A DNA stretch of 64,000 nucleotides, taken from sequence record DRR378314_109, one strand, 5' to 3'. Made by a program: the position numbers and the translations under genes. Positions 10,554-64,000 of the stretch are shown here, piece by piece; positions within the stretch are counted from its first letter, which is position 1, and every line of letters starts with the position of its first letter. The notes under the pieces were generated by a model. It was not told the origin of the DNA. It saw only the letters and a list, made by a program, of their open reading frames with translations, and did not search any database.

Positions 10554-10603
10554 AGTTTCCTCCAGTTGGTTTTGGTTGTTTTCAGGTGATGGTTGGGTCG
10601 AAT

Positions 10604-11887: not shown

Positions 11888-11891
11888 TGAT

Positions 11892-12410: not shown

Positions 12411-12429
12411 TCCGATCCCCTCCCGGATC

Positions 12430-12569: not shown

Positions 12570-12594
12570 CGCCAAATATGTTTGGAGCACGACT

Positions 12595-18960: not shown

Positions 18961-19075
18961 GAAAAAGTCCTTTGATGTGACAACTGGACAATTGTTCTAT
19001 GCATTCGTAGATAGATTTCAATACCCCACAGCACAGCCAACAATCGTGAGCCATGCGTTAAGAAAGGACCTTAAC

Positions 19076-19966: not shown

Positions 19967-19970
19967 ACCT

Positions 19971-47095: not shown

Positions 47096-47143
47096 CTCGA
47101 CCTCACCCATTTTCGCTCGCTTCCCTTGGTCGCGCATATACTT

Positions 47144-47159
47144 AGTTACATGGGTAACT
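47144..47159. promoter_or_regulatory. Palindrome, probable MarR operator
   Basis: agttac-atgg-gtaact between divergent marR and dctP. Confidence 0.55.
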
Positions 47160-47231
47160 TGACAACTTAGGGACGATACTGCACCCCTAGGTAAAGAGGC
47201 GTCAACAGTCTCTATCATCAAGGAGGAAAAT

Positions 47232-48227
47232 ATGCGCAAAATTTTACTAGGGGCCATTTGTGCCGGATCAATGGTGTTTGCCGCTGCAAGCGCGCATGCG
47301 GAAACCATTATCAGGGTGTCACTGCAATTGCCCAAAACGCATTCTCTTGGTCAGAACTGGCTGGAGTTCCAATCCTTGATAGAAGAAAAGTCCGATGGCG
47401 AACTCAAGTTGCAACTGTTTGATTCTGCGCAGCTTTTCAAAGACAAGGAAGTTCCGGAAGCGGTTGGTTCCGGCGCTATTGAAGCTGGCACCGCCTTTTT
47501 AGGGCGTTTTACGGGGGCCGTGCCTGCGGTTGATGTGGTCGCCATTCCATTTATTTTCGAGGACGAGGCGCATCTGCGCGCTGCCGTGGCATCTGGTTCA
47601 AAAATGCGCAGCGGGCTTGATGCCGAGATTTTGAAAGAAACCAATGTTAAGGTTCTGTGGTGGCAGGCCTTTGGGCGCAACATCTATCTGTCGAATGGAA
47701 ATGCCATTCGCACGCCCGAGGATATGAAAAACCAAAAGGTCCGCACCTATGGCAAGGTACATGGTTGGACTGTTGAGGCACTTGGCGGTGCGCCGACGTT
47801 GATGTCAGGGTCAAAGCAGTTTCTGGCATATCAACAGGGAGCGGTTGATGTGGGCATGACCGGCGCATCCGCTGTGAAGTCACGCAAGCTCTATGAGGTT
47901 ATGGATCACATGACCTTGTCCTACGACAGTGCAATTGAATTTGTGGCTGTAATGAACAATGATTTTTTCGAGGGTCTGTCGGCAGAGCATCAGGCGATCA
48001 TCATGGAAGCGGCAGCCGTTGTTGAGGCAAAGCTGCGGGATGCGATTTATGATCAGGAAGCCGAGGCAATTGCCGAAGTCAGTCAGAAAATGACCGCCAT
48101 CGAACTGACGGACGCGGAACGCGCTGAATGGGTCGCCGCCACCGCAGGTGTTATTGACCGCTTTGTCGCCGAAGCCGGGGATGCCGGTGTTGCAGCCGTA
48201 GAGGCCGTGCGCGCCGCCGCAAACTAA
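47232..48227 (+). CDS. dctP: TRAP substrate-binding protein
   Basis: AGGAGG RBS, signal peptide, AQLF, IPFIF, KVRT, YQQGAVD. Confidence 0.9.
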   Translation: MRKILLGAICAGSMVFAAASAHAETIIRVSLQLPKTHSLGQNWLEFQSLIEEKSDGELKLQLFDSAQLFKDKEVPEAVGSGAIEAGTAFLGRFTGAVPAVDVVAIPFIFEDEAHLRAAVASGSKMRSGLDAEILKETNVKVLWWQAFGRNIYLSNGNAIRTPEDMKNQKVRTYGKVHGWTVEALGGAPTLMSGSKQFLAYQQGAVDVGMTGASAVKSRKLYEVMDHMTLSYDSAIEFVAVMNNDFFEGLSAEHQAIIMEAAAVVEAKLRDAIYDQEAEAIAEVSQKMTAIELTDAERAEWVAATAGVIDRFVAEAGDAGVAAVEAVRAAAN

Positions 48228-48241
48228 GCAAAGCCAATCTT

Positions 48242-48273
48242 AATCGCGGTCTCAGCTGGGGCCGCGATTTTTT
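48242..48273 (+). terminator. Intercistronic hairpin plus T-tract after dctP
   Basis: aatcgcggtctc-agct-ggggccgcgatt-tttt. Confidence 0.55.
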
Positions 48274-48289
48274 GACCAGCGGGGGTGCA

Positions 48290-48817
48290 ATGGCGTCGGT
48301 AGTACAGAAATTTGTCCAGATGATGGAAGCTGTTTCGGAAGTGACGGGCAAAGTTGCCGCGTGGTTGTTTTTCGCCACCGGCATTATTGTGTGTTACGAG
48401 GTTTTCATGCGCTACGCCTTGAACTCACCAACCATCTGGGTGGACGAGATCAGCCGTATTCTGCAAGTCTGGGCGACCTATCTTGCCATCGCTTTTGTGC
48501 TTAAAAGCAAGGCGCATATCGTCATTGACCTTGCTTTTCGCGATCCGAATTCCCTTGGTCGCAAGGTGGTCGACACATTTGCCCTGTCAGTGATCATTTT
48601 CTTTTGCTTGATCGTGGTGAAATACGGGATCGATATCTGGTGGAAATCAACGGTTTCCGGACATACGACCGATAGCTACCTTGCTGTGCCCAAGGTGTTT
48701 ATCCAATCATCGATCTGGTTTGGCTTTGGCCAAATGGCGCTGCAAGCCGTCGCCGAAATTGTCAAAATCTGGACATGGAGTCCAGATGACCTCCCCAAGC
48801 AGACAAGGGTGCACTGA
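48290..48817 (+). CDS. dctQ: TRAP small permease
   Basis: YEVFMRY..PTIWVDEIS, HIVID; 4 TM. Confidence 0.9.
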   Translation: MASVVQKFVQMMEAVSEVTGKVAAWLFFATGIIVCYEVFMRYALNSPTIWVDEISRILQVWATYLAIAFVLKSKAHIVIDLAFRDPNSLGRKVVDTFALSVIIFFCLIVVKYGIDIWWKSTVSGHTTDSYLAVPKVFIQSSIWFGFGQMALQAVAEIVKIWTWSPDDLPKQTRVH

Positions 48818-48818
48818 C

Positions 48819-50090
48819 ATGGAAACCATCCTTATTCTTGGCAGTCTGATTGGGCTGCTGATTTTACGTGTTCCGGTGGCCTTTGCTATGGGAGCTTTGG
48901 GGGCCGTTTTGTTGTGGATCAAGGGCTTCCCCCTGATCGCCGTGCCACAACGGTTGTTCGGCACCATGGACAGTTTTGAGTTGCTGGCCGTGCCGTTGTT
49001 CCTGTTGATGTCAAATGTGCTGCTGAAAGGCGGGGTGGGGCGCGATTTGTTTGCCAGTGTGCAAGCATGGGTTGGCCATTGGCCCGGCGGTCTGGGCGTC
49101 GCCACCATCATGAGCTGCACGTTGTTCTCAGCGATTTCAGGATCATCCGTCGCCACGGCGGCAACCATTGGGACGGTCGCAATCCCCGAGATGAAACAGC
49201 GTGGCTATGACGAACCCTTTATTCTTGGGCAGCTGGCCGCTGGCGGTACCTTGGGCATTCTTATCCCGCCCTCGATCCCCTTGATTATCTACGGTGTCAT
49301 TACCGAAACTTCGATCCCGACATTGTTTCTGGCTGGCATTGGGCCGGGCTTGTTGATGGCCAGTATTTTTGTTGTCTATGCAATGCTTTACAGCCGTTCA
49401 GGTGCTGCACCGGCGATGGCCAAAGCCAGCTGGTCAGAGCGTGCCAGAGCCACGTTTTACGCGCTGCCCACTGTGGTGCTGGCGGTTGCGATTATTGGCT
49501 CGATCTATGCGGGTATCGCGACCCCATCTGAAAGCGCCGGCGTTGGTTTTGTGATTGCGATCATTATGACCTTTGTGATGGGGCGGATAAATTGGGAGAA
49601 ACTCAAACTGGCGGTTGAGGATTCACTCAAGACAACAGCGATGATTTTCATCATCGTTGCCGGGGCCAAAGTGTTTTCCTATGCGATAACCCTGTTTTTG
49701 ATCCCGCAAACCATCAGCAACTATCTTATCCAGAACATTTCCGATCCGACCATGTTCATTCTGGCGGTGGGTTTGGTGCTTTTGGTGATTGGGTTTTTCC
49801 TGGAATCCTTGTCGATGATGCTGATCATGGTCCCGGTACTGTTTCCTGCGCTTCAGGCGATGAACATTGATCCCATCTGGTTTGGCATCTTCTTTGTTGT
49901 GCTGATCGAGGCAGCCTTGATCACGCCACCTGTAGGGTTGAACCTTTTTGTTATACAATCGGTCGGCAAAGCCCGGCTCGAAAGTGTGGTAAAAGGGGCC
50001 TGGCCGTTTGCATTGATGATGCTTGGCATGGCCATGTTGCTATGGGTCTGGCAGGATCTGGCGCTTTTTATACCTTACAAGTTGTTCTAA
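48819..50090 (+). CDS. dctM: TRAP large permease
   Basis: LAVPLF, GSSVAT, GGTLGILIPPS, TPPVGLN. Confidence 0.93.
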   Translation: METILILGSLIGLLILRVPVAFAMGALGAVLLWIKGFPLIAVPQRLFGTMDSFELLAVPLFLLMSNVLLKGGVGRDLFASVQAWVGHWPGGLGVATIMSCTLFSAISGSSVATAATIGTVAIPEMKQRGYDEPFILGQLAAGGTLGILIPPSIPLIIYGVITETSIPTLFLAGIGPGLLMASIFVVYAMLYSRSGAAPAMAKASWSERARATFYALPTVVLAVAIIGSIYAGIATPSESAGVGFVIAIIMTFVMGRINWEKLKLAVEDSLKTTAMIFIIVAGAKVFSYAITLFLIPQTISNYLIQNISDPTMFILAVGLVLLVIGFFLESLSMMLIMVPVLFPALQAMNIDPIWFGIFFVVLIEAALITPPVGLNLFVIQSVGKARLESVVKGAWPFALMMLGMAMLLWVWQDLALFIPYKLF

Positions 50091-50149
50091 TTGGCGAGCA
50101 TCAATCCTATGCCGGTGCACAGGTATAGGCTGTTATGACAGGAAAGCGC

Positions 50150-51019
50150 ATGAACCTCTCACCTCCCGACAAACTGCGGGCATTGCTTGCAAAAGACGAA
50201 ATTATTGTGATGCCATGTTGCTTTGACCCTTTGTCGGCCAAGTTGATCGAGCAGGAGGGATTCCCGCTTTCCTTCATGTCAGGCTTTACCACATCCGCCG
50301 CTCGGTTGGGCATGCCCGACACGGGATTGATGTCTTATGGTGAAATTGTCGATCAGGGTCGCAACATCTGTAATGCTGTTGAGATTCCGGTCATCGGGGA
50401 TGGTGACACCGGATATGGCAATGCCCTGAACATCAAACGCACTGTTCAGGGGTTTGCTCAGGCTGGATTTGCGGCCATCATGATTGAAGATCAGGTTGCC
50501 CCGAAACGATGTGGTCATACAGCCGGCAAAGCGGTGGTCGGTCGCGAAGAGGCATTTGAGCGCATCCGTGCCGCAACAGATGCCCGTGCCGAGGGCAGTG
50601 ACATCCTGATCCTCGCCAGAACCGATGCGCGCCATGATCACGGCCTTGACGAAGCCATTGAACGCGCCCAGCGGTTTCATGAACTGGGGGCTGACATCTT
50701 ATTCATCGAAGCCCCGCGAGATCAGGATGAGATGCAGCGGATTTGCGAGGCATTACCCGGCCCCAAGATGGCAAACCTGATCGAAGGTGGGCTAACACCT
50801 GTTCTGTCCCCGGCAGACCTTCAGGAAATCGGGTTTAGCATTGCGGCCTATCCAATCACCTTGATGGCGGCAGCGATGAAAGCCATGACAGGTGCCTTGC
50901 AGGAACTCAAAACAGGCAAGGTGAACCCGGACCGTTTGATGCCCTTTGATGAGGTCAAGACACGCATCGGATTCGACGCCTATTTCGAAGCTGAAAAGCG
51001 GTATCAGGATCGCAAATGA
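50150..51019 (+). CDS. Isocitrate lyase/PEP mutase superfamily enzyme (PrpB/2,3-dimethylmalate lyase-like)
   Basis: FDPLSAK, MSG, DGDTGYG, IEDQVAPKRCGH, ARTD. Confidence 0.88.
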   Translation: MNLSPPDKLRALLAKDEIIVMPCCFDPLSAKLIEQEGFPLSFMSGFTTSAARLGMPDTGLMSYGEIVDQGRNICNAVEIPVIGDGDTGYGNALNIKRTVQGFAQAGFAAIMIEDQVAPKRCGHTAGKAVVGREEAFERIRAATDARAEGSDILILARTDARHDHGLDEAIERAQRFHELGADILFIEAPRDQDEMQRICEALPGPKMANLIEGGLTPVLSPADLQEIGFSIAAYPITLMAAAMKAMTGALQELKTGKVNPDRLMPFDEVKTRIGFDAYFEAEKRYQDRK

Positions 51020-51141: not shown

Positions 51142-52026
51142 TTATTGGTTCGTTGGGTTCTTTTGCATCAATCGCACCAGCTCGGGCAGATAGGCCTCTT
51201 CTGCACCGCGTTCCACAATTTGAGATAAGGCACTATGGACGCCATCAGCGATAGTATGCTCTGCGCCTGCATCTGTTGACATCTGACGGTAATAGTCGAA
51301 ATCCTTTAGTGCATTGCTGATGGTGAAGGGCAATGAATCGCTGTCGCCGTTCAGGATGAAGGGTGACAAACGATCCAAGGCAACGCTGCCCCCGCCACCT
51401 TCGGCAAGAACATCCACAAAAGACTGAGGGTCAATTCCGGCATCAGCAGATTGTGCAGCCGCTTCTGCGAGCAGAGACATAAACCCGACAGATACATAAT
51501 TGTGCAGCAGTTTAAGCCTGTGGCCCGCGCTGACAGCGCCGACATGTTTGACACTTTCGGTGAAGGAGGCAAGCAAGGGGCCAAGTTTATCAATGACCGC
51601 AGCATCCCCACCAAGAAGCAGATTCAGTTTACCCTCATGGGCAAATTTGGCCGTGCGTGTCATTGGCGCATCGATAAAATCACTGGCCGCGGCCTGAACA
51701 GCCTCTGCCATCCGTAACGTAGAGGCGGGCAGGGCAGTCGAACAATCAACCACAATGGAGCCCTTGCGAAGCCCCGCAATCACCCCCTCCTCTCCGGTCA
51801 GAATGGCCTCGACCTGAGGGGTTCCTGTAACGCACAGGATGACGACATCCGAGGCGGTGGCCAGCTGTTGTAGATTGTCAAACGCGGTTGCCCCAAGTTC
51901 GACAAGTTCATCTACGGGGCGGTTGCCCGGATGATCGAAGTAGTTCAACGCAAAGCCGCCGCGCCGCATCACATTACGTGCGATACCGTGGCCCATCAGG
52001 CCGACACCAACAATTCCGATGTTCAT
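51142..52026 (-). CDS. Beta-hydroxyacid dehydrogenase (3-hydroxyisobutyrate/tartronate semialdehyde reductase family)
   Basis: GIVGVGLMG, VDCST, DAPMTRT, LKLLHN, KD. Confidence 0.88.
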   Translation of the reverse strand: MNIGIVGVGLMGHGIARNVMRRGGFALNYFDHPGNRPVDELVELGATAFDNLQQLATASDVVILCVTGTPQVEAILTGEEGVIAGLRKGSIVVDCSTALPASTLRMAEAVQAAASDFIDAPMTRTAKFAHEGKLNLLLGGDAAVIDKLGPLLASFTESVKHVGAVSAGHRLKLLHNYVSVGFMSLLAEAAAQSADAGIDPQSFVDVLAEGGGGSVALDRLSPFILNGDSDSLPFTISNALKDFDYYRQMSTDAGAEHTIADGVHSALSQIVERGAEEAYLPELVRLMQKNPTNQ

Positions 52027-52274
52027 CTGGGTAACCCCTTTTACTGTCATGTGTTCTTCAGCAGCCCGATGTGGCGGCATGCGGGGAGAAGAAGCCAATT
52101 TTACGCATAGGCGGCATCAAATCCCAGATATCCATAATCGGAAGTGCGCAAGGCTGCAACTTAACGCTTTGTTTGGAAATTAAAAATTCCGGCGAACTGC
52201 CTGTTCTGTAATGTCTGGCCTTGTACAGGCGATTTTCATTGATAGGACTACCCTAGCGTTAAGTGGAGGCTACA

Positions 52275-53771
52275 ATGACTTTATCCTTTGATTCCAGAAA
52301 AATGGCCGATGCACTTTATACGGGCCAATTCTGTCCCATGTTCATTGATGGTGCATTTGTCCCTGCCCAATCGGGAGAGGTGCTTGATGTTGTTGACCCT
52401 GCTTCGGGGCGCCAACTGGCGACTGTTCCGCGTGGTGGGGCGGCGGATGTTGATGTCGCTGTCGCTGCTGCACGGCGGGCTTTTGAGGGCGAATGGTCAA
52501 AGTTTACGCCTTATGATCGACAGGAAATACTGCTTCGCATTGCCGATTTAATGGAAAAAAACTGGGATATGCTCTGTGTGTCCGACACCGTCGATATGGG
52601 CCTGCCAATCACCCGGACTCTGGGCAACAAGCGCCGCGTGATCGGGATGCTGCGCTTTTACGCCGGGCAAGCCACAGCGTTGCATGGCGATTACATTGAA
52701 AACTCTGTGTCTCAATCAATGATTTCCTACACCACCCGCGAGCCAGTGGGTGTGGTGGGTGCGATCATTCCTTGGAACGCCCCAATCGCGGCGTCGATCT
52801 GGAAAATTGCACCGGCATTGGCGACGGGGTGTACGGTGGTGCTGAAACCTTCGGAAGATGCGCCGCTGACACCGCTTTTGATTGCGAAGCTAATGCAAGA
52901 GGCAGGTGTGCCGGATGGTGTGGTCAATGTGGTCACGGGAACCGGTGCTGAGGCCGGGGCAAGATTGGCGGCACATCCTGATGTGAACAAAGTGGTCTTC
53001 ACCGGATCAACCGCGACCGGACAAACCATCGCGCGTGCAGGGGTGGACAATCTTAAACGGATCACGCTTGAGCTGGGCGGCAAATCCCCCATGATCATTT
53101 GCAAGGATGCAGATATCGCAAAAGCAATTCCGGTCGCTGCCATGGCAGTCTATGCGCATTCGGGCCAGATTTGCATCGCCGGGTCACGGTTGTTCGTTGC
53201 CCGTGAAATTCAGGACGAGTTTATTCAGGGGCTTTCCGAGTTTGCAAAATCGCTCAAGATCGGTCACGGGCTTGATGCTGATACCGACCTTGGCCCGCTG
53301 ATCAACGCACAACAGACCAGCAAGGTCGAAGCCTATATCGCATCTGGCCAAGAGGAAGGTGCGCGTCTGATCACCGGCGGCGGGCGACCGTCAGGTGATC
53401 CTTATGACGGTGGAAACTTTCTGCGCCCGGCGATCTTTGCCGATGTTAGGGACGATATGAAAATCGCCCGCGAAGAGATATTTGGCCCGGTGGTTTCAGT
53501 GCTGCCGTTTGATACGCTGGATGAGGTCACTGCACGCGCCAATGCAACGCAATATGGTCTGGCGGCGGGCATCTTTACCCGTGACCTTGGCACAGCGCAT
53601 AAAATGACCAAGAGGATCAAAGCAGGATCGATCTGGGTTAACATGTACCATGCCATTGACCCAGCGGTGCCATTCGGAGGGCTGAAAATGTCAGGCTATG
53701 GCAAGGAAGGCGGGGTCGAGCATTTGCAAGCCTATCTGGACACCAAGGCGGTTTGGATTCAGACCGAGTGA
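52275..53771 (+). CDS. NAD-dependent aldehyde dehydrogenase
   Basis: IIPWN, FTGST, LELGGKSP, GQIC, EEIFGPV. Confidence 0.95.
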   Translation: MTLSFDSRKMADALYTGQFCPMFIDGAFVPAQSGEVLDVVDPASGRQLATVPRGGAADVDVAVAAARRAFEGEWSKFTPYDRQEILLRIADLMEKNWDMLCVSDTVDMGLPITRTLGNKRRVIGMLRFYAGQATALHGDYIENSVSQSMISYTTREPVGVVGAIIPWNAPIAASIWKIAPALATGCTVVLKPSEDAPLTPLLIAKLMQEAGVPDGVVNVVTGTGAEAGARLAAHPDVNKVVFTGSTATGQTIARAGVDNLKRITLELGGKSPMIICKDADIAKAIPVAAMAVYAHSGQICIAGSRLFVAREIQDEFIQGLSEFAKSLKIGHGLDADTDLGPLINAQQTSKVEAYIASGQEEGARLITGGGRPSGDPYDGGNFLRPAIFADVRDDMKIAREEIFGPVVSVLPFDTLDEVTARANATQYGLAAGIFTRDLGTAHKMTKRIKAGSIWVNMYHAIDPAVPFGGLKMSGYGKEGGVEHLQAYLDTKAVWIQTE

Positions 53772-53795
53772 GGGCGGTGCTTGCCTGATTGGGGC

Positions 53796-53834
53796 GGCAA
53801 TGTGGACAGGTGCGATAACCCTGTCCACATTGCC
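53796..53834. terminator. 15-bp-stem hairpin between convergent ALDH and dctM
   Basis: ggcaatgtggacagg-N9-cctgtccacattgcc. Confidence 0.75.
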
Positions 53835-53839
53835 ATTTA

Positions 53840-55123
53840 TTAGAACCCGCTGATTCTGGGCAGCCAAGTGCTGAGCGATGGCACGAAGGTCAGCAACATC
53901 AGCACCAGAAAATTCACCAGAAAGAAGGGCGGCATTTCACGTATCAATGCTGCGGGTCGTAAATTGACCGCTGAGGACACAACGAAAATCAAACTGCCCA
54001 CAGGCGGGGTGGTCAGCCCCAGTGTCAGGTTCACGATCACAACAATCGCAAAATGATCTGGCGCGATACCCAAGGCATGGCTGATAGGGGCGAGGATCGG
54101 AACCAGTATCATCACGCCGGGCAGCGGGTCCATAAACAGTCCGAACAACAGCATCAGAACATTGACAGCCAACAGAAACATGATCGGCGACAGCTCCCAT
54201 GCGATGATGGTTTGCGCCAGGAACTGTGGCACGCCTTCGATGACCAGAACCCAGGCAAATGCCCGCGCAGCACCAAGGATGAGCAGGACCGCAGCGCTGA
54301 TGAGGGCCGCGCGTAGGATAATGCCCGGCAAATCACGCAGATGCAAAGCCCGGTAGACAAACATCCCGCAGAACAAGGCGTAAAAAACGGCGATGACAGA
54401 GGCCTCTGTCGGGGTGAAAACACCACCGCGAATGCCCCCAACAATCAATACAATAAGCCCAAGCGCAGGCAGGGCCAGAGCGGTGTTACGCAGCATTTCC
54501 GCCCGGTTCGGACGGGGCGCATCACTGCGGTAGTTGCGCTTCCAACTGACATATCCATTAGCCGCAAAGGTGCCGCAGGCCAGCAAAAGACCTGGCACAA
54601 CTCCCGCCATAAACAAGGATCCAACCGAGACTTCCTGATCTTGCAGCGCATAGATGATCATCACGATTGAGGGTGGAATAATCGGCCCGACCACGGCACT
54701 GGAAATGGTCAAGGCACCCGCATAGGAGCGATCGTAACCACCCTTTTCCATCATTCGGATCATCATGGCCCCGGGACCGGCGGCATCGGCCAGGGCGGAA
54801 CCCGAAATTCCCGCAAACATAGTGGACGATATGACATTGGCATAACCCAATCCGCCGCGCAGATGACCGACAAATTGCGAGGCAAAGCGCAGCAACGCAT
54901 GTGTCACCGCCCCGCCAGTCATGATTTCCGCAGCAAGAATGAAAAACGGTACCGCCAGCAACGGAAAGCTGTCCAAGCCCGAAAACATTTCTTTGACGAC
55001 AACAATCTGAGGATAGCTGCTGCCCAGCTCAATGGCGATGAAAACAGAGATCGCCATGGCAAAAGCGACAGGCAGGCCAAGAACCATCAAGACGAACAGG
55101 GAAAGAAATAAAATCTCAGCCAT
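53840..55123 (-). CDS. dctM: TRAP large permease
   Basis: LAVPFFILA, GSALAD, IIPPS, TPTEA, TPPVG; start MAEIL. Confidence 0.93.
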   Translation of the reverse strand: MAEILFLSLFVLMVLGLPVAFAMAISVFIAIELGSSYPQIVVVKEMFSGLDSFPLLAVPFFILAAEIMTGGAVTHALLRFASQFVGHLRGGLGYANVISSTMFAGISGSALADAAGPGAMMIRMMEKGGYDRSYAGALTISSAVVGPIIPPSIVMIIYALQDQEVSVGSLFMAGVVPGLLLACGTFAANGYVSWKRNYRSDAPRPNRAEMLRNTALALPALGLIVLIVGGIRGGVFTPTEASVIAVFYALFCGMFVYRALHLRDLPGIILRAALISAAVLLILGAARAFAWVLVIEGVPQFLAQTIIAWELSPIMFLLAVNVLMLLFGLFMDPLPGVMILVPILAPISHALGIAPDHFAIVVIVNLTLGLTTPPVGSLIFVVSSAVNLRPAALIREMPPFFLVNFLVLMLLTFVPSLSTWLPRISGF

Positions 55124-55634
55124 TACTTGCCCCCGGGAAGGCATCGGCTTCGCCATTTTCTTGTTTGTAGTGGCCCGCCAGAATGAACGGTTTAGCAATC
55201 AACAACAGATGGATAATGAGCAGGCAGAAACCAACAGGCATTGCAGCATAGATGTACCGAAACGACAGGCGCAGCGCCGGGGTTTTCTGAAAACTGGTGC
55301 GTTCCATATATTGGAGCCCGACATATACCATAAAGGCGAAAAACATCAGGAGCACACCGACAATCGCGGCTCGCAGTATCTGCTGGCGCTTCTGGTGCAT
55401 CACATCATGAAGGTTCGTAATTGCGACATGCCCCCCTTGTCGGAGCGCCAACCCGGCCCCCAGAAATGTCATCCAGATCATCAAATATCGGGCGGCTTCA
55501 TCCGCCCAGGGCAGGGAGTGATTGGTCGTGTAGCGCAGTGCCACGTTGGCACCGACGATCAGCGTCATTGAAGAGAGCACCGCAATCACAACCGCCGCAT
55601 TGAGCGACACGAATATTTTTTCAAGCTTTCTCAA
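55116..55634 (-). CDS. dctQ: TRAP small permease
   Basis: NVALRY..WADEAARYLMIW, GHVAI. Confidence 0.9.
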   Translation of the reverse strand: MRKLEKIFVSLNAAVVIAVLSSMTLIVGANVALRYTTNHSLPWADEAARYLMIWMTFLGAGLALRQGGHVAITNLHDVMHQKRQQILRAAIVGVLLMFFAFMVYVGLQYMERTSFQKTPALRLSFRYIYAAMPVGFCLLIIHLLLIAKPFILAGHYKQENGEADAFPGASNG

Positions 55635-55700
55635 GCTGCTCCCCCCAATAGAAAGCGGCCGGAATTCGGAATTCCAGCCGCTTTGGCATCGCTTTTCAGC

Positions 55701-56687
55701 TTACTCTGTCGCTGAAATTTTCTCGATCAGGTCTTTGCCATAGGTTTCGTAGTAACCTTCATATGCGCTTTCAATTGACGCGCGGAAAGCTGCCTTTTGA
55801 TCGGTGGACAGTTCGTTCACTTCCATGCCGCGTTCTTTCAAAGTTTCAGCACCGCTTTTCTCAACATTGTCGACATATTGGCGCATCGCAGCAACGGCTT
55901 CGGTTGCACCGTTTTCGAAGGCGGTCTTGTCTTCATCGGACAGGCCTTCCCAGAAAGGTTTGGACACCAACAGCATGGCGGGTGAATAAACGTGACCGGA
56001 CAAGGTCAGATATTTTTGAACTTCGTCCAGCTTCACAGAAACAATTACGGAAAGGGGATTTTCCTGACCGTCAATTGTCCCTTGCTGCAACGCGCCAATC
56101 ACCTCGGGCCAAGCCATCGGTGTCGGGGCAGCACCCGCGGCATTAAAAGCGGCAAGGTGGACAGGGTTTTCCATGGTCCGCAATTTCAGACCTGCAAGAT
56201 CCTCGGGTGTTTCGACTGCATTGCGGTTGTTTGTGATGTGGCGGAAACCCTGTTCCCCCCAGGCAATCGCAACCAATCCTGCGCTGTCGAATTCAGAAAG
56301 AATGCCCTTGCCGATAGGGCCGTCAAGCACGTTTCGCGCATGATCAAGACTGCGAAACAGGAACGGGATATCCGTAACACCTGTCGCCGGAACAAAGTTG
56401 CTCAGCGTGCCGGTGGACACAATGGTGGCCTCCACAGTACCCAATTGCAGCCCTTCAACAACTTCACGCTCACCGCCCAAACCAGATGAAGGGAAGTGAC
56501 GGAAAGTGAATTTTCCATCTGTCTGTGCTTCAACCACTTCCTGCCATTTTTGGGCAGCCACACCATAGTGCGAGTCTGGTGCGAGAGCATAGCCGATTTT
56601 GACTTCTGTCTCGGCAATCACCGCGCTGCTAACAACGGTGGCAATGGTTGCGATCAACCCGGTCTGGAGCATTTTGTCAAAAATCAT
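55701..56687 (-). CDS. dctP: TRAP substrate-binding protein
   Basis: LGGERE, QGFRH, GLKLRTM, ALQQGTIDGQENP, GHVYSP (carboxylate-binding Arg present). Confidence 0.93.
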   Translation of the reverse strand: MIFDKMLQTGLIATIATVVSSAVIAETEVKIGYALAPDSHYGVAAQKWQEVVEAQTDGKFTFRHFPSSGLGGEREVVEGLQLGTVEATIVSTGTLSNFVPATGVTDIPFLFRSLDHARNVLDGPIGKGILSEFDSAGLVAIAWGEQGFRHITNNRNAVETPEDLAGLKLRTMENPVHLAAFNAAGAAPTPMAWPEVIGALQQGTIDGQENPLSVIVSVKLDEVQKYLTLSGHVYSPAMLLVSKPFWEGLSDEDKTAFENGATEAVAAMRQYVDNVEKSGAETLKERGMEVNELSTDQKAAFRASIESAYEGYYETYGKDLIEKISATE

Positions 56688-57073
56688 TTCACTTCCTTCT
56701 AGAAATTCGCGTTAACTTTCGGAATTGCTATCTCGCGGATTTCAGTTTGGCAATGGGGCTTGCTTGGTTGTTTTCCTTGCCATGAAAACCCGCGCTTCGG
56801 CGGCCTGAAACGCTGGTTGGCACGATCCTTCACACTCTTCACGAAATTTATCCTATCGTTTTGGGTGATCGTTGCGGCGAGGTGTCTCTACAGGAATCTA
56901 GCACACCCTCAGGTTGCTGCGCACATCCTACCTCTACCACCTACACGCTGCTTTTAGTGTTCCACCCCAGCGCAATATTGCCATCCAACCCGAAGCAGGG
57001 CGGTGTCGATGGGGTCCTTTTCGGCGTCCAAACCAATCGACGGTATCACCGCAGGGCCATTTTTTCGCGTCAT

Positions 57074-57105
57074 GCACTTTTGTATTGATTGGATATCAAA
57101 AGTAA
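57074..57105. promoter_or_regulatory. Widely spaced dyad, candidate SorC-family operator
   Basis: acttttg (57076-82)...caaaagt (57097-103) upstream of SAF-oxidoreductase operon. Confidence 0.45.
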
Positions 57106-57144
57106 CATACTCCATTTAGGGAGCACTGACCGGAGGATCATCAC

Positions 57145-58467
57145 ATGCCGACGAACGTGGCCCTGACAGGGCTTGCCAACGACTTGGCCGAACGAGAGGC
57201 CGCAGGACGCCCGGTGCGGATTGGCCTGCTCGGAGCTGGTGAAATGGGCACCGATATCGTCACGCGTGTCGCACATATGCGTGGTATCGAGGTCGGCGCG
57301 ATTTGCGAACTAAACCTCCCAGCTGCGGAAGCTGCCGTCGACATCGCCCACCGTGAAACTGGTCACAGCCGGGTGGTGCGCAGTGCGGATGCGCTTGGGC
57401 GGGCCATGGATGACGGCAAAACCGCAATCACTGACAATGCTTCCTTCTTACTCGAGTCAGGTCAGATTGATGTCATTGTCGATGCGACGGGCATTCCTGC
57501 CGTCGGTGCGGAAGTTGGACTTTCTGCGATGGAGCACGGCAAGCACCTTGTGATGATGAATGTCGAGGCCGATGTCACGATCGGGGCCTATCTGCGCGCG
57601 GAGGCCGCACGGCTTGGCGTGGTCTACTCACTAGGTGCCGGTGACGAACCCTCTTCCTGTATGGAGTTGATCGAGTTTGTCAGCGCTATGGGCCATCGTA
57701 TTGTTTCAGCAGGAAAAGGCAAAAACAACCCTCTGAACATTGACGCAACACCGGAAGAATATGAGGCAGAGGCAGTGCGGCGCCACATGAATCCGCGCAT
57801 GCTTGTTGAATTTGTCGATGGGTCCAAGACCATGGTCGAAATGGCCGCCATTGCAAATGCTACTGGCCTAATTCCAGACAAGCCCGGCATGCACGGCCCT
57901 GCCTGCACACGCGAAGACCTGTCCAAAGTGCTGGTGCCGGAGAAAGATGGCGGCATTCTCAGCTCTGGTGAGGGGCGTGTTGATTTTACCGTGGGCAAGG
58001 GTGTCGCGCCGGGTGTCTTTGTGGTGGCAGAGATGGACCATCCGCGCATTCGCGAGCGGATGGAAGACTTGAAGATGGGTGAAGGTCCGTATTTCACCTT
58101 CTTTCGACCGTTTCACCTGACATCGCTAGAGGTCCCGCTGACCTGTGCGCGTGCGGTTCTGTATGGAAAGGCCGACATGGTCCCGATGCCAAGACCCGTT
58201 GCCGAAGTCTGTGCTGTGGCCAAAAAGGATATGCAGCCTGGCGAAACTCTCGATCAGATTGGCGAGTATAGCTATCGCGCATGGATCATGACCACGGGTG
58301 AAGCAGAGGCAAGCCGTGCGATCCCTTGCGGTATGCTTGAAGGCAGCAAGGTCACCGCGCCAATTCGCAAGGGTGATCTGATCACCTATCATAACGCCGC
58401 TCTCCGGGAGGGGAGCCGGATCGCCGCATTGCGCGCCCGTCAGGACGCCATGCTGGCCAAGATCTGA
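57145..58467 (+). CDS. NAD(P)-dependent oxidoreductase with C-terminal SAF domain (COG4091, homoserine dehydrogenase-like)
   Basis: GAGEMG Rossmann, VDATG, MMNVEAD, GDEP, AGKGKNN, DGSKT; SAF AVAKKDMQPGETLD. Confidence 0.85.
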   Translation: MPTNVALTGLANDLAEREAAGRPVRIGLLGAGEMGTDIVTRVAHMRGIEVGAICELNLPAAEAAVDIAHRETGHSRVVRSADALGRAMDDGKTAITDNASFLLESGQIDVIVDATGIPAVGAEVGLSAMEHGKHLVMMNVEADVTIGAYLRAEAARLGVVYSLGAGDEPSSCMELIEFVSAMGHRIVSAGKGKNNPLNIDATPEEYEAEAVRRHMNPRMLVEFVDGSKTMVEMAAIANATGLIPDKPGMHGPACTREDLSKVLVPEKDGGILSSGEGRVDFTVGKGVAPGVFVVAEMDHPRIRERMEDLKMGEGPYFTFFRPFHLTSLEVPLTCARAVLYGKADMVPMPRPVAEVCAVAKKDMQPGETLDQIGEYSYRAWIMTTGEAEASRAIPCGMLEGSKVTAPIRKGDLITYHNAALREGSRIAALRARQDAMLAKI

Positions 58468-58478
58468 GGTTCTTCGAC

Positions 58479-59483
58479 ATGACTGACACCGACAACAAGC
58501 CCTTCGCCCTGCGCAAATATACCGCAGAGGAGTTGAAGAGCGCGCTCTACAAAATGCACCTTATTCGGCTGTTTGAGGAAGGTGCCGAGGACAGCTATAC
58601 ACGCGGCCTGATCCACGGAACGATGCACCTCTCAATCGGGCAGGAAGCCTCTGCCGTGGCAAGTTGCATGCCCTTGAGCGACAGTGACTACATCACATCC
58701 ACGCACCGTGGCCACGGACACTGCATTGGCAAAGGCGCTGATGTGAAACGGATGTTTGCAGAGTTCTTCGGCAAGGAAGATGGCTATTGTCACGGGCGTG
58801 GCGGCTCCATGCACATCGCTGATGTCTCCAAAGGCAATCTCGGCGCAAATGGGATTGTGGGCGGCGGCCTGCCGATTGCCACCGGGGCGGCGCTGACGGC
58901 CAAGCGGCTCAAAACCGGCGCCGTTGCGGTCTGTTTTTTCGGAGATGGTGCCAATAATGAAGGCGCATTCCACGAGGCGCTGAATATGGCCTCCATCTGG
59001 AAGCTCCCTGTTGTCTACATCTGCGAAAACAACCGCTACGGCATGTCGACATCAACCGAACGGTCAACTGCGGTGCCGAATATCGCGGATCGCGCTGTCG
59101 CTTATGCCATGCCCGGCGTCACGGTTGACGGAAATGATTTCTCTGCCGTGGCAGAGGCGGTCGAGACTGCGGTGCAACATGCGCGTGATGGGCATGGTCC
59201 AAGCCTTGTAGAAAACCTTACCTATCGTTGGCGGGGCCACTCAAAATCCGATCGAAATCGCTATCGCACCAAGGATGAGATCGAAAGCTGGGTTGAAAAG
59301 GACCCGATCAAACGCTTCCGCGCTCAGTTGATTGAACATGACGTTCTTTCCGAAAGCGAAGCTGATGCCATCGCTGAGGCGGCACATCGCGAAGTGCAGG
59401 ACGGTATCGCCTTTGCGCAGGCCAGCCCGCCCCCCTCTACTCATGAGGTGACGCGATATGTTCATGGGGAGGCACAGGCATGA
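58479..59483 (+). CDS. TPP-dependent dehydrogenase E1 alpha (AcoA/PdhA-like)
   Basis: [25 protein letters not shown]...ENN, YRWRGHS. Confidence 0.92.
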
Positions 59484-60493
59484 ACGCACAGACATCCGAC
59501 CTAACCACACGGGAAATGAGCTATGCAGAAGCACTCAGAGACGCGATGGAAATTGCATTGGAGCGCGACGAACGTGTGATCCTCATGGGCGAGGATATCG
59601 GGGTTTACGGCGGCGCCTTTCAGGTGACCGGTGACTTGGTCCATCGCTTTGGGGAAGACCGGGTCATTGATACGCCGATCTCGGAACTTGGCGGGGCAGG
59701 GGTCGCCGTTGGGGCGGCCTTGACCGGGTTGCGTCCAATCTTCGAGTTTCAATTTTCAGATTTCGCCATGCTGGCCATGGAGCAAATCGCCAATCAGGCG
59801 GCCAAGCTACGTTATATGCTGGGGGGCGAGGCTTCCGTTCCTTTGGTCATACGCATGCCTGCGGGTTCAGGTACGGGCGCTGCCGCGCAGCACAGCCAAA
59901 GCCTAGAAGCCTGGTTTGGTCATGTGCCGGGACTTAAAGTTGTTCAACCTACCACGCCCGCAGATGCAAAAGGCATGTTGCTGGCCGCTGTAGAAGACCC
60001 CGACCCGGTGATCATTTTTGAGCACAAGTTGCTTTACAAGATGAAAGCCGAGGTGCCCGAAGGGTATTATACCGTGCCGCTCGACAAGGCAGAGGTGCGC
60101 CGAACCGGGGAGGACGTCACAATTGTAGCCTCTGGCGGTATGGTTCCGCGCGCGTTGGAGGCTGCCGAAGCAGCGGCGGCGCAGGGCCATTCTACTGAAG
60201 TTATTGATCTTCGCTCAATCCGCCCGATTGACCGGGAGACCATCCTGTCTAGCGTGCGCAAGACCGGCCGGCTGATCTGCGTCTATGAAGGGGTACGCAC
60301 AATGGGTGTCGGTGCTGAGATCTCTGCCATGGTGGCTGAATCCGACGCTTTTGATTTTCTTGATGCGCCAATCCTGCGGCTTGGCGGCGCGGAAGCCCCG
60401 ATCCCTTACAACCCGGACCTTGAGCGCGCCGCGGTACCACAGACCGCCGATATAGAGCATGCCATTGGCCGTTTGATGCGACGCGAGGTTTAG
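59480..60493 (+). CDS. TPP-dependent dehydrogenase E1 beta (AcoB/PdhB-like)
   Basis: GEDIG, DTPISE, AAQHSQ, PGLKVV, EVIDLRS. Confidence 0.92.
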
Positions 60494-60496
60494 ACC

Positions 60497-61804
60497 GTGG
60501 CAACAGAAGTCATTATGCCCAAGGTCGACATGGATATGGAGACCGGCAAAATCTCTGTCTGGCATGTCGCCGAAGGCGAGACCGTCACAAAGGGTGCTGC
60601 ATTATTTGATATCGAAACAGACAAGGCCGCGATGGAGGTGGAGGCTCCAGCAACTGGCACATTGCACCATATCATTGCGCAGATTGACGATGTCATCGCG
60701 GTGGGCCGCCCTTTGGCCTGGATCTATGCAGAGGGGGAAGAAGTGCCCGATGCGCCGCCTGCGTCCCCGCCAACACCATCAGCGGTGCCGGCACCTGCGC
60801 CAAACAACACCACGCCCGAAAGCGCACCCTTGCCTATTTCAGCGGCACCAGCGGCCGCATCTGCCGGTGACCAGATCCGGGCCACGCCCGCAGCGCGCAG
60901 GATTGCACGAGAACAAGGTTTGGACCTTGCCACGATACAGGGAACCGGTCCACGTAACCGTATCCAGCGCGACGACATTGAAACGGACTGCATCACCCAA
61001 GTGGATGCCGCTGTTACGTCATGGTCCACACAAGCAGGTCCGCTTGCGGTGACACGGACGGGCACAGGAATAGATGCGCCGATTGTGCTGATCCACGGCT
61101 ATGCCGCAGATGCGATGGGATGGCGCCCACTGGAGCAAGCCCTGCGCGGCACCGGACGGGAGTTTATTCGGATCGAACTGCCAAGCCACGGCAATTCGCC
61201 ACGGCGATACATCAGTGACTTCGCGACGCTCGCCCGCATGCTGGTTGATACCTTTGATGCGCTCGCGCTTGATCAGGCCCATGTCATCGGTCATTCGCTG
61301 GGCGGTGCCCTGGCCGCTGCATTGACCGATATTCGTTCCCGCCGCATCGCAACCCTTGGGTTGATCGCACCTGCGGGATTGGGGGCGGAAATCGATGGTG
61401 ATACGCTTCTTGGCATCGCGCGCGCCTCTCGTACAGAAAGCCTTGCACCGTGGCTCAAACGGCTTGCGGCCACCGATGGGGCGATTAGCGAGGATTTTGC
61501 CAAGGCCGCTATGAAGGCGCGGTCAGACCCGGAACAACGTGCTGCCCAACTCGATCTGGCAAAGACGCTTTTCCCGGATGGCACACAAACATTTGATATC
61601 CGTCCCGCGCTCACACGGGTCGAAGTGCCGCTATCGGTCATTTGGGGCCGGGGTGATCGCATTTTACCTTGGCGTCAGGCGTTTCAACTGCCGGGGCATG
61701 CTGCGTTGCATCTTCTGCCGGATGTAGGGCATATTCCGCATATCGAACAACCCGAGACGGTTGCAAAACTGCTGATCCGGCTATTCAAACAGGCGGAGAT
61801 CTGA
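60497..61804 (+). CDS. Lipoyl + E3-binding + alpha/beta-hydrolase fusion (AcoC-type atypical E2)
   Basis: IETDKA lipoyl Lys, [37 protein letters not shown]. Confidence 0.88.
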
Positions 61805-61821
61805 AGGAGGCAGACGACCCT

Positions 61822-62814
61822 ATGAGCGCTTCTCCCCGTAACGGAGCTTCTTCTCCTGCTGTCGCAACTCCAACTGGGCGGAACGTAAACAGCGAACGGC
61901 TCCGCGCGCGGGCGGTGTGGTTGTACTATGCTGAGGGAATGAAGCAGAGCGAAATTGCCGAGGCGCTTGGAACCACGCGCGTCACTATTGTGCGCTTGCT
62001 GGCAGATGCCCGCAGGCGCAACGAGGTGCGCATCACCATTTCGTCCTCCATGGCAGAGCTTGCCGGGATGGAAGTGCAGCTTTCACAGCGCTACGGAATT
62101 CAGGATGTCATTGTCTGTCCCTCAAACGAAGCCGTCCCAGACCCGACGCAATCCATCGCGGCTTCTGCCGGTGCCTATGTAAGTGGGATGATGCAACCCG
62201 GTATGTCGGTTGGTGTCGGATGGGGGAAAACCCTTCATTCGATGTTGCAATTCATCGAAAGCCAGACCCTGAGCGATCTGAGTGTGGTGTCCCTGCTTGG
62301 CGGGTTTTCGCACGTCCGGCATTTTAACCCGGCGGATTTCGCCTGGCGTTTTGCGGAGCTGTTCCAAGGGGAGGGGTATCTTGTCCCGGCGCCAGCGCTT
62401 GTTGATAGCCCGGAAACAAGGCGCGCATTAATCGAACGCTGCGGGATTGGTGAGGTTTTTGCTAAAGCCCACAATCTTGATATGGTGTTGTTGTCGGTAG
62501 GCGGAATTGCTCAGGGGGCGACCTCTTTTCAAACCGGTTATCTGACCGATGCCGAACGTGAGGATCTTAAAGCCGCCGGTGCCACGGGGGATCTATTATA
62601 TAATTTCATCGATGTCGACGGGCGTTTGATCGACCATCCGGTGAACGACCGCACCATCTCGGTAAGTCTGGAACAGCTTGCAAATGCGAAGGCGCGGATC
62701 ATCGTGTCCGGTGGCCCTGAAAAGGTCGAAGTGCTGCATGGTGCAATTGCAGCCATTCGCCCTTCCGCTCTGGTGACGGATGACGCCAGTGCCAGAACTC
62801 TTCTGGCGATGTAA
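61822..62814 (+). CDS. SorC/DeoR-family sugar-binding regulator
   Basis: AVWLYYAEGMKQSEIAEALG, GVGWGKT, GATGD, GPEK, LVTD. Confidence 0.9.
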   Translation: MSASPRNGASSPAVATPTGRNVNSERLRARAVWLYYAEGMKQSEIAEALGTTRVTIVRLLADARRRNEVRITISSSMAELAGMEVQLSQRYGIQDVIVCPSNEAVPDPTQSIAASAGAYVSGMMQPGMSVGVGWGKTLHSMLQFIESQTLSDLSVVSLLGGFSHVRHFNPADFAWRFAELFQGEGYLVPAPALVDSPETRRALIERCGIGEVFAKAHNLDMVLLSVGGIAQGATSFQTGYLTDAEREDLKAAGATGDLLYNFIDVDGRLIDHPVNDRTISVSLEQLANAKARIIVSGGPEKVEVLHGAIAAIRPSALVTDDASARTLLAM

Positions 62815-62870
62815 CAGTGCCAATTTGCTGTCGGGAGCGCGATACAATACTTGACCGAAACCCCGAATAG

Positions 62871-62902
62871 GAACATTAGTATAGTAGCGAAACGATTGTT
62901 CA
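62871..62902. promoter_or_regulatory. GAACA-N21-TGTTC dyad, candidate SorC-family operator
   Basis: gaacattagtatagtagcgaaacgattgttca. Confidence 0.5.
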
Positions 62903-62935
62903 GCACCCTCTAAAACAGAAACTAATGAGAGTTCG

Positions 62936-63613
62936 ATGATTTCGGGAACCCTGCCTATCAAAGACCTTCTGCGTGGGCTGCGCTCTGGCATGACGGCGGG
63001 GCGGGTTGCCATTGATCCCTTGAGCCGGGATTTCCCCGGACCTCTACGTGATGTTGTGGACGGTCTGGATATCATTGCCACACGGCTTGAGGCGACAACA
63101 TCACGTTTGGCCCATAGTATTCTGGATGATGGAGCAACGTCACGGAAAGGGTTCGGCTGGACCTTGCAAACGCTGGCAATGCACCCGAACGGCGCGACAA
63201 TCTTTGCGCAATTGGCCTACGGTGCCCTTGGTGCTGCATATTCACGATTTGCGCAACAACCCGCGCTGGTGAGCGAAACCCTCGCCGCACAGGCGTTTCA
63301 GGCCGCGATGAGTGCAACATCTGCGGATCGAAGCGCGCTGCCTGCTGAACTTCTTCTTCAACTGATAAGCACCGAAGTCATTCGTTCGGTGCCTTTGGCG
63401 ACTCTTTCACAGCAGAAAGACGATTCCGCCATACTTGCCTATACCGCTTTTGTGATCCTGCTCTGTGTGGAGCGCGCCTCCGAGAGTGAAGAAACTGATC
63501 TGCTTGATCTATGTTGCGACACTGCGCCGCTGATAGCGCGGAAATTCCGTTTTGACCCTGATGAACGTTCCGCTTTGCGTGCCGCGATCGCGGATTGCGC
63601 GCGCTTGATTTGA
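62936..63613 (+). CDS. Hypothetical protein (helical, 225 aa)
   Basis: Longest ORF in the gap, GAGAG RBS; no recognised motif. Confidence 0.65.
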   Translation: MISGTLPIKDLLRGLRSGMTAGRVAIDPLSRDFPGPLRDVVDGLDIIATRLEATTSRLAHSILDDGATSRKGFGWTLQTLAMHPNGATIFAQLAYGALGAAYSRFAQQPALVSETLAAQAFQAAMSATSADRSALPAELLLQLISTEVIRSVPLATLSQQKDDSAILAYTAFVILLCVERASESEETDLLDLCCDTAPLIARKFRFDPDERSALRAAIADCARLI

Positions 63614-63625
63614 GAGGTTCCTGCC

Positions 63626-64000
63626 ATGACGCTTCCTGCCCCTGAACTCCTCCTGACGCCGAACACGCAAGTCAGACGTGCGGTTCGCAGGTTGCGCTGG
63701 TTTCGTCGTGCTTTTCTTGAACAGGTGGCGGTTATCTCCGAAGATTGCGGCATTCCCTTCGACGTCGATACCATTCGGCTGGCGGATGCCTTCCTTGAAT
63801 GGAGCGCCGCCTTCGAGCGTAAGAAACCAACATCCCGCGCGGACAAGCGCCGCTATGTTGATCATGTTTCCGGGTTGATGCTTGAGCAATTGCTGCGAAA
63901 GGCCCCTCTATCGGCCAGATGCGGGGACAAGACTCCAAACGATGCGACCCCTGCCCAATTCTGGCCAGAGGGCTATGCCTGCGTGGTCTTCTGTCTGAAC
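63626..64000 (+). CDS. Hypothetical protein (truncated by window end)
   Basis: Not in ORF track. GAGG RBS; open frame MTLPAPELL...RRLRWF...LADAFLEW...FWPEGYACVVFCLN. Confidence 0.7.
   Translation, partial: MTLPAPELLLTPNTQVRRAVRRLRWFRRAFLEQVAVISEDCGIPFDVDTIRLADAFLEWSAAFERKKPTSRADKRRYVDHVSGLMLEQLLRKAPLSARCGDKTPNDATPAQFWPEGYACVVFCLN

Follow-up and report, generated by a model that had tools for sequence, protein, structure and literature searches.

A DXR-II reductoisomerase gene leads an acetoin dehydrogenase-like operon that may serve the catabolism of methylerythritol phosphate

The stretch of DNA described here, from sequence record DRR378314_109, is 64,000 nucleotides (nt) in length (the window) and ends in an operon led by the gene for a 'COG4091' oxidoreductase, which is followed by genes for a thiamine pyrophosphate (TPP)-dependent E1, a lipoyl E2 and a regulator of the SorC/DeoR family. 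The oxidoreductase is classified below as DXR-II (also named DRL), an enzyme that interconverts DXP (1-deoxy-D-xylulose 5-phosphate) and MEP (2-C-methyl-D-erythritol 4-phosphate). We propose that DXR-II runs in reverse in this operon (MEP to DXP) and that an acetoin dehydrogenase-like complex then cleaves DXP to acetyl-CoA and glyceraldehyde-3-phosphate (GAP), an explanation to which we give about an even chance. The best explanation for the arrangement of the window, held with middling confidence, is that two independent modules lie side by side: module A (57076-64000, running past the window end), which contains this operon, and module B (51142-56687), which encodes a tripartite ATP-independent periplasmic (TRAP) transporter and two dehydrogenases. 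The stretch occurs in DNA sequencing runs of 11 studies, and no RNA run is listed as containing it; scattered short contigs across both modules were found in three presumed-RNA runs and one DNA run.

The preliminary description of this DNA, which was made from the letters alone, knew of no assigned reaction for COG4091. A reaction can now be named. The window protein matches PDB entries 3UPL/3UPY over its full length (residues 1-439, E 1.8e-194, 650 bits); we take these entries to be Brucella abortus DRL, alias DXR-II, with which the window protein shares its NAD-binding, DRL catalytic and SAF-like C-terminal domains. According to the text of Carretero-Paulet et al. 2013 (PMC3847144), which also ties 3UPL/3UPY to B. 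abortus DRL/DXR-II, true DXR-II is split from the uncharacterised sister clades DLO1 and DLO2 by G121, T229, H250, V351 and other residues; K191, K193 and T229 are fosmidomycin/substrate anchors, and R320 lies at the dimer interface. In a HMMER alignment, G121, K191, K193, T229, H250, R320 (R321 here) and V351 (V352 here) are all identical in the window protein, and the same seven signature residues are invariant across nine operon-type sequences; Y322 is F in the window protein. By its full-length match and its signature residues, the protein is thus assigned to DXR-II/DRL.

Two observations bear on the activity of the operon-type enzyme. Mesorhizobium loti and Ochrobactrum anthropi are reported to have additional functional DXR-II paralogues, both copies of which complement a dxr mutant (PMC3847144), and the two DXR-II copies of Aminobacter aminovorans (L073/L077), one in an operon and one alone, are 98.4% identical (434/441 residues). 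We therefore regard it as very probable that operon-type DXR-II is a true reductoisomerase of DXP/MEP. A role for COG4091 as a D-apionate oxidoisomerase was also considered and was ruled out, as ApnO has a KARI-like fold (PMC13753588).

The features of module A within the window are as follows.

57076-57103, plus strand: inverted repeat ACTTTTG-N14-CAAAAGT with a TTGA(C/T) box inside it, located 42 nt upstream of where DRL starts
57145-58467, plus strand: DXR-II/DRL, the 'COG4091' protein (Pfam DRL_cat [PF21135] 1.3e-66, NAD_binding_3, SAF)
58479-59483, plus strand: TPP-dependent E1alpha (Pfam E1_dh [PF00676] 2.1e-92)
59480-60493, plus strand: E1beta (Pfam Transket_pyr [PF02779], Transketolase_C [PF02780]); a 4-nt overlap joins its start to the E1alpha stop
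60497-61804, plus strand: AcoC-type E2 (lipoyl domain, E3-binding domain at residues 127-162, alpha/beta-hydrolase fold)
61822-62814 (open reading frame [ORF] 61669-62814), plus strand: SorC/DeoR-family regulator (Pfam Sugar-bind [PF04198] 4.4e-56, HTH_23)
62936-63613, plus strand: unkA, conserved, without a Pfam family
63626-64000, plus strand: hyp1, conserved, without a Pfam family, cut by the window end

From DRL through the regulator the junctions are tight, with gaps of 11, -4, 3 and 17 nt, and a 458-nt spacer separates the plus-strand DRL operon from the divergent minus-strand TRAP genes. The likely true start of the regulator is the ATG at 61822, which has an AGGAGG box ahead of it. An ORF and domain check of the window recovered every gene of the preliminary description in its place, and the operon is longer than was listed there: the ORFs at 62936-63613 and 63626-64000 have been added.

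Conservation of the operon was surveyed in 163 loci: 83 from genomes or plasmids (80 genome loci, from a scan of one genome per species, and 3 plasmid loci) and 80 from metagenomes. DRL is followed by E1alpha in 72/80 genome loci and in 3/3 plasmid loci, and stands alone in 8/80; overall the operon is seen in 128/163 loci, many of the remainder being short contigs. A blastn search also found 161 plasmid records with DRL-E1alpha-E1beta(-E2). According to their annotation, the Sinorhizobium meliloti plasmid pRM41A and the Agrobacterium tumefaciens plasmid pAtCFBP7129b encode, in order, a sugar-binding regulator, a sugar ABC importer, a PfkB kinase, DRL, E1alpha, E1beta, E2, LpdA and LipA, followed by two hypothetical proteins, a GlpD-like FAD dehydrogenase and a Zn-dehydrogenase; these polyol loci of the Rhizobiaceae, with a CUT1-type sugar importer and PfkB, represent another variant of the DRL operon. 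One Rhizobium plasmid (G010 contig C4) holds the whole DRL-E1 stretch twice, at 103216-104523 and 458661-459968 with identical scores; since other E1beta paralogues of G010 are duplicated too, this looks like a large recent duplication.

The window regulator has an N-terminal helix-turn-helix (HTH_23) and the sugar-binding domain PF04198, as the SorC/DeoR family requires, and shares 60% identity with its counterpart next to the operon of Agrobacterium. On the DeoR model it scores 196.7 bits against a cut-off of 420, and it is therefore regarded as a family member and not as a DeoR equivalog. SorC-family repressors typically respond to sugar phosphates. The inverted repeat at 57076-57103 aligns with the sequence GAACTTT..TTGACA..AAAGTTC upstream of DRL in 11 relatives, and the operator pattern has 2 matches in the window against 0.20 expected; as an exact pattern it is too strict for relatives, with 6/114 loci matching. 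The repeat is likely to be the promoter and SorC operator of the operon, as predicted from this alignment.

The E1 and E2 genes encode a complex of recognisable type. The closest solved relative of E1alpha is human pyruvate dehydrogenase (PDH) E1alpha (4.7e-63). Across five genomes, orthologues encoded in DRL operons share 74-83% identity with the window E1beta, against at most 55% for the next paralogues there; judged by these identities, the DRL-operon E1beta is a separate orthologous group. The protein first described as a lipoyl/hydrolase is a known E2 type, since it scores 360.9 bits on NCBIfam NF011457 (acetoin dehydrogenase E2, AcoC), above the cut-off of 307; its motifs include the lipoyl-lysine ETDKA (K43) and the nucleophile elbow GHSLG. 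It had been suggested that the hydrolase domain releases the acyl group. Of the 83 genome or plasmid loci, however, 37 have a gene for a classical 2-oxoacid-dehydrogenase E2 after E1beta and 28 have one for the AcoC type (in 7 the locus is cut off, in 1 no such gene is present there, and 10 have no E1beta). As the two types swap in orthologous operons, they most simply do the same job, acyl transfer, which argues for transfer to CoA by E2 rather than hydrolytic release.

Acetoin dehydrogenase (AcoA/AcoB/AcoC, with or without AcoL) is one of the nearest known systems. It shares with the window operon a TPP-dependent E1alpha-beta and an AcoC-type lipoyl E2 of alpha/beta-hydrolase fold, and would share its chemistry, in which a methyl ketol yields an acetyl group and an aldehyde. 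The window operon differs in its leading DXR-II gene, its SorC control and its proposed substrate, DXP, which would give GAP and not acetaldehyde; the frequency of classical E2 genes in DRL operons is a further difference from acetoin systems. Acetoin dehydrogenase clusters have a dedicated dihydrolipoyl dehydrogenase (E3; AcoL) and an acetoin-responsive activator. No Lpd (E3/AcoL) homologue was found in the 64-kb window, and the regulator is of the SorC/DeoR type and not an acetoin-type activator.

The scheme that we propose has module A as a SorC-regulated catabolic operon. MEP would be imported as such through an AfuA-like ABC importer encoded past the window end; in other lineages a sugar ABC importer would be accompanied by a PfkB kinase that phosphorylates free methylerythritol to MEP. 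Running in reverse, DXR-II would oxidise and rearrange MEP to DXP, with formation of NADPH. Like acetoin, DXP is a methyl ketol (CH3-CO-CHOH-R), and the TPP of E1 would attack its C2; cleavage between C2 and C3 would let GAP leave, and the hydroxyethyl group would be oxidised onto lipoamide to give acetyl-lipoamide. E2 would then hand the acetyl group on to CoA, with the lipoamide restored by an E3 whose gene lies elsewhere, so that the net products would be acetyl-CoA, GAP, NADPH and NADH. This E1 half-reaction would be the reverse of the condensation of hydroxyethyl-TPP with GAP carried out by DXP synthase (DXS). The proposed chemistry has a reported parallel in the 1-deoxyketoses made by acetoin and pyruvate dehydrogenases (title of a reference cited in PMC3424233). 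E1beta is distantly similar to DXS models but scores 64 bits against a cut-off of 466, so it is not a member of that family; unlike DXS, the window E1 would be heterotetrameric and coupled to lipoamide, and thus oxidative and effectively irreversible.

The DNA past the window end is represented by a metagenome contig, L161; over 16,856 nt its identity to the window is 98.6%, and it is therefore considered to come from the same population. After the operon, L161 encodes hyp1 (401 amino acids), a second SorC regulator on the other strand, an SBP_bac_6-type binding protein at 18969-19994 and a fused permease. The second SorC regulator and this AfuA/PhnS-like ABC importer occupy 17830-21320 of L161, and the importer lies 2.5 kb past the window end. 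The same module (second SorC regulator, binding protein and permease) is found at 60-73% identity beside the DRL operon in 15-16 other loci, from Mesorhizobium, Aquamicrobium, Pseudogemmobacter and five metagenome contigs. The closest solved relative of the L161 binding protein is AfuA (4R72-4R75; E 1.5e-18, 70 bits), followed by a pyridoxal-5'-phosphate binding protein (P5PA). AfuABC is a hexose/heptose-phosphate importer (PMC4546632); its likeness to the downstream binding protein is weak, and the ligands of the importers discussed here are putative. The AfuA-like module is likely to be the cognate importer.

Importers and kinases were counted in the 66 operon loci of at least 19 kb. A CUT1 sugar importer is present in 21/66, all 21 of which have a PfkB kinase; an AfuA-like importer is present in 12/66, and PfkB in only 1 of these 12. 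The two importers are found together in 0/66. That PfkB travels with CUT1 and is missing with the AfuA-like type is as expected if the pathway intermediate is a phosphate ester, and because the latter variant has no kinase its importer may take a phosphorylated substrate.

The distribution of DXR-II copies suggests that the operon gene is seldom needed for isoprenoid synthesis. Each of the five closest operon-bearing genomes (two Limimaricola, Paracoccus onubensis, Stappia and Pseudogemmobacter) has DXR-I above the Pfam cut-off (5/5) and a single DXR-II-clade copy (at least 78% identity), located in the operon; three of the five also hold a 35-38% paralogue. With the same DXR-I query, no match was obtained in any of four genomes (Brucella [Ochrobactrum] haematophila, Brucella tritici, A. 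aminovorans and Mesorhizobium jarvisii), each of which has two DXR-II copies, one in an operon and one alone. The operon DXR-II is thus probably redundant for isoprenoid synthesis in most carriers, and is set among genes for uptake, a kinase and a repressor. The enzyme crystallised from Brucella is an orthologue of the stand-alone copy, giving 895 bits to stand-alone copy L101 versus 725 bits to operon copy L097, and operon copies differ from the Brucella housekeeping copy by about 25-30%. The window gene, in contrast, heads a regulated operon with a ketol-cleaving complex, its operon-carrying relatives also hold DXR-I, and the direction proposed for it here is catabolic. In a quick tree, which is effectively unrooted, is not final and was used only for this purpose, stand-alone copies are scattered among operon copies with at least five changes needed; this scatter hints that housekeeping copies were recruited, repeatedly, from operon copies.

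The two ORFs that follow the regulator recur with the operon in other loci. The window hyp1 is 37-46% identical to hyp1 in 38 loci, and unkA is 25-28% identical to ORFs beside hyp1 in five loci; the L004 homologue of unkA recurs in 19 loci, with hyp1 as its neighbour in every one. The pair is located at 62936-64000 in the window, at 2944-4291 in L004 and at 15792-17687 in L161. Neither protein gave a match in a Pfam search, and for unk225 recognition in the ESM Atlas was low, with no usable lead. An AlphaFold model of the L004 orthologue of hyp1 has a pLDDT of 89.5; its best structural match by VIA-align is Doc (3DD7; Z 9.6, rmsd 2.7, 116 residues), with Fic proteins at Z 5-6, values in a range (below about 13) that can arise by chance for helical bundles. 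Foldseek returned no match to this model at E 0.001 or better. Fic/Doc enzymes have a catalytic His-containing motif; no conserved His is present in the invariant or near-invariant columns of 27 hyp1 sequences, the core of which is FWPEGY. The C-terminal half of the L161 hyp1 is fused and weakly HAD-like (HAD_2 E 0.004, below cut-off), and an annotated HAD phosphatase adjoins hyp1 in an Aminobacter plasmid.

Module B, on the other side of the spacer, consists of the following genes.

51142-52098, minus strand: HIBADH-like beta-hydroxyacid dehydrogenase of the HIBADH/tartronate-semialdehyde reductase (TSR) family (Pfam NAD_binding_2, NAD_binding_11)
52263-53771, plus strand: aldehyde dehydrogenase (ALDH; Pfam Aldedh 3.4e-174)
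53840-55198, minus strand: DctM (Pfam and NCBIfam)
55116-55634, minus strand: DctQ (Pfam and NCBIfam)
55701-56687, minus strand: DctP (Pfam and NCBIfam)

The preliminary description had tied the TRAP and ALDH genes functionally to DRL; the neighbourhood survey finds this linkage not conserved, an outcome that the description itself had named as grounds for refutation. DctP, DctQ, DctM and HIBADH of the window type were found in 0/83 genome or plasmid DRL loci (coverage at least 50%, E 1e-10 or better), and ALDH gave only 28-36% matches, in two of these loci. Among the metagenome DRL loci the TRAP/ALDH/HIBADH neighbourhood occurs in 1/80, namely L161, from the window's own population. DctP orthologues (62-79% identity) are present in 10/301 Paracoccaceae genomes, with DRL or a DRL-type E1 within 10 kb in 0/10; an HIBADH orthologue (62-69%) lies directly beside dctP in 5/10, and in four of those five there is an ALDH orthologue (67-68%) too, forming a co-directional ALDH-HIBADH-DctP-DctQ-DctM unit. 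Because the linkage to DRL is not kept and the genes form units of their own elsewhere, the TRAP genes are considered self-contained: by this comparison, ALDH-HIBADH-DctPQM is a module for a hydroxy-carboxylate, and its position next to the DXR-II operon is local, recent and due to chance. The same five genes are together in the window and in L105-L109, and in the window rearrangement has divided them between the two strands. No extra enzyme is common to the sequences that flank the TRAP module in L106 and L109. One DNA-run contig (X3) skips 376 nt in the ALDH gene (53086-53463), with a shorter side of only 22 letters, and may be from another organism.

The TRAP system is complete (DctP PF03480, DctQ PF04290, DctM PF06808), and R149, R170 and N210 of DctP align with R152, R173 and N213 of 4P47, so that the carboxylate-binding Arg/Arg/Asn triad is kept. 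The closest solved relatives of DctP are 4NQ8 (E 1.4e-111), 4PDD, 4PDH and 4P9K, entries that are each presumably pantoate or D-erythronate binders. Binders of these two compounds have been assigned to a TRAP cluster in this part of the family (PMC5812351, PMC11668362). The substrate of module B, like the putative ligand of its DctP, is probably a pantoate/erythronate-like hydroxy acid, which would be imported and taken through two oxidations, alcohol to aldehyde and aldehyde to acid. For HIBADH the best solved match, 3CKY (E 3e-34), is not a close one.

Three other regions of the window were noted. Next to module B, 46640-51019 encodes a MarR regulator, a second TRAP system (DctP/Q/M) and an enzyme of the PEP-mutase/isocitrate-lyase family (best match methylisocitrate lyase, below cut-off); in relatives, no linkage joins these genes to the other TRAP module. 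An iron-uptake island at 15570-35658 includes TonB/ExbB/ExbD, two TonB-dependent receptors, a FecCD-type ABC importer, an imelysin-like protein, a di-haem peroxidase, DUF1513 and a ferritin-like protein. At 572-13530, amino-sugar-type catabolic genes (SIS, BadF-type kinase, GntR, NagA-like) stand beside a third TRAP system, together with genes for an MlrC-like peptidase, a D-serine-dehydratase-like protein and a PfkB kinase.

Four other explanations of the operon were weighed. The preliminary description envisaged that a polyhydroxy acid imported by TRAP is converted to a ketol and cleaved by E1, that the hydrolase releases the acyl part and that the aldehyde passes to ALDH or the reductase. 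Its core logic stands, as an oxidoreductase/isomerase would make a ketol, an acetoin-type E1 would cleave it and a SorC regulator would sense a phosphosugar; the unassigned COG4091, the TRAP/ALDH link and the acid feed have been abandoned. The genes do adjoin, diverging across the spacer, and this arrangement is kept in L161. Against the complete pathway stand the survey counts given above, with the linkage found once among 80 metagenome loci and self-contained units in 4-5 of the ten DctP-orthologue genomes, and the restriction of the conserved operator to the DRL promoter. Furthermore, DctP retains a carboxylate triad whereas DXR-II retains its phosphonate (fosmidomycin) anchors, so an imported acid is an unlikely feed. 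We regard this pathway as very improbable. An ordinary acetoin/2,3-butanediol operon (acoABC) that lies by chance beside a biosynthetic DXR-II gene would account for the E2 score above the AcoC cut-off and for an E1 of the heterotetrameric PDH/acetoin type. Chance is difficult to reconcile with a DRL-E1 order kept across several alphaproteobacterial families and with the 11-nt and overlapping junctions in the window; sugar importers, PfkB kinase and SorC regulators accompany the operon, E1beta forms its own orthologous group, and relatives already have DXR-I. The chance that this explanation is correct appears very small.

An inducible biosynthetic bypass, in which E1 acts like DXS (pyruvate and GAP to DXP) and DXR-II then forms MEP, has precedents: PDH E1 mutants can supply DXP in Escherichia coli (PMC3424233), and 1-deoxyketoses are, according to the title of a reference cited in the same paper, reported products of acetoin and pyruvate dehydrogenases. 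Carboligation, however, needs no lipoyl E2, nor the LpdA and LipA of the Rhizobiaceae operons, and the importers, kinase and sugar-phosphate-type repressor point to catabolism; we consider a bypass highly unlikely. The fourth explanation keeps the operon logic and changes the substrate to a different branched or 1-deoxy sugar or polyol in phosphorylated form, such as a 2-methyltetrol isomer or another 1-deoxyketose phosphate, the specificity of DXR-II being shifted. The GlpD-like FAD dehydrogenase and Zn-alcohol dehydrogenase (Zn-ADH), which recur in 14/83 loci each, would suit an extra polyol oxidation or epimerisation, and the divergence between operon and Brucella housekeeping copies would also allow for such a shift. 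On the other hand, operon-type sequences do not vary at the residues that anchor fosmidomycin/substrate or are specific to DXR-II, in Aminobacter the operon copy is nearly identical to a stand-alone copy in a genome without DXR-I, and the complementation reported for M. loti and O. anthropi extends to both paralogues. A substrate other than MEP is possible, though rather unlikely.

Cleavage of DXP formed by reverse DXR-II remains our preferred reading, and several points count against it. Support for the operon-type members is genomic throughout, and the co-occurrence of DXR-I is known from genomes of relatives. The DXR equilibrium favours MEP, so a reverse run depends on the irreversible cleavage step, and the reading assumes that the habitat supplies MEP or methylerythritol. 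The AfuA likeness is weak at 70 bits, and the best NCBIfam match of the binding protein, phnS2, is far under its cut-off; 33 of the 66 long loci have neither importer, with none of three transporter types within 10 kb. Finally, the scheme gives no role to several recurrent neighbours: the GlpD-like FAD dehydrogenase, the Zn-ADH, hyp1 and unkA.

No description of DXR-II in a catabolic operon, or of methylerythritol or deoxyxylulose catabolism, was found in the literature, supplements (including the trees and tables of PMC3847144) being outside the material covered. The component families are known; the catabolic use of DXR-II with an acetoin-type complex is probably new. Also new here are the unrelatedness of the TRAP/ALDH neighbourhood, the kinase-less variant with an AfuA-like importer and the mutually exclusive pattern of importers and kinase.

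A broader reading, which we offer tentatively and regard as doubtful, is that DXR-II is catabolic at root: Alphaproteobacteria would consume methylerythritol or its phosphate by way of a dedicated DXP-cleaving lipoamide complex, some lineages, including this one, would import the phosphorylated compound by an AfuA-like ABC system, and the housekeeping DXR-II of the Brucella type would be a recruited copy that displaced DXR-I. On the same tentative footing, plants, stressed bacteria or the oxidation of isoprene may release the methylerythritol or its phosphate. In Brucella the housekeeping DXR-II is a drug target, and under this broader reading it would descend from a catabolic gene.

For annotation, a 'homoserine dehydrogenase-like' or 'NAD(P)H-dependent oxidoreductase' gene beside 'acetoin dehydrogenase' genes is a recognisable unit, and the adjacency of a TRAP system here does not amount to functional linkage. 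If the proposed pathway is correct, intermediates of the MEP pathway would enter central metabolism in two steps, through reverse DXR-II and a DXP dehydrogenase complex; acetoin-type complexes would gain a new class of substrate, and a reductoisomerase would have a physiological role in reverse. It would also explain why DXR-II exists and why its distribution is patchy, and would give access to how polyols of the methylerythritol type turn over in soil, the rhizosphere and sea water.

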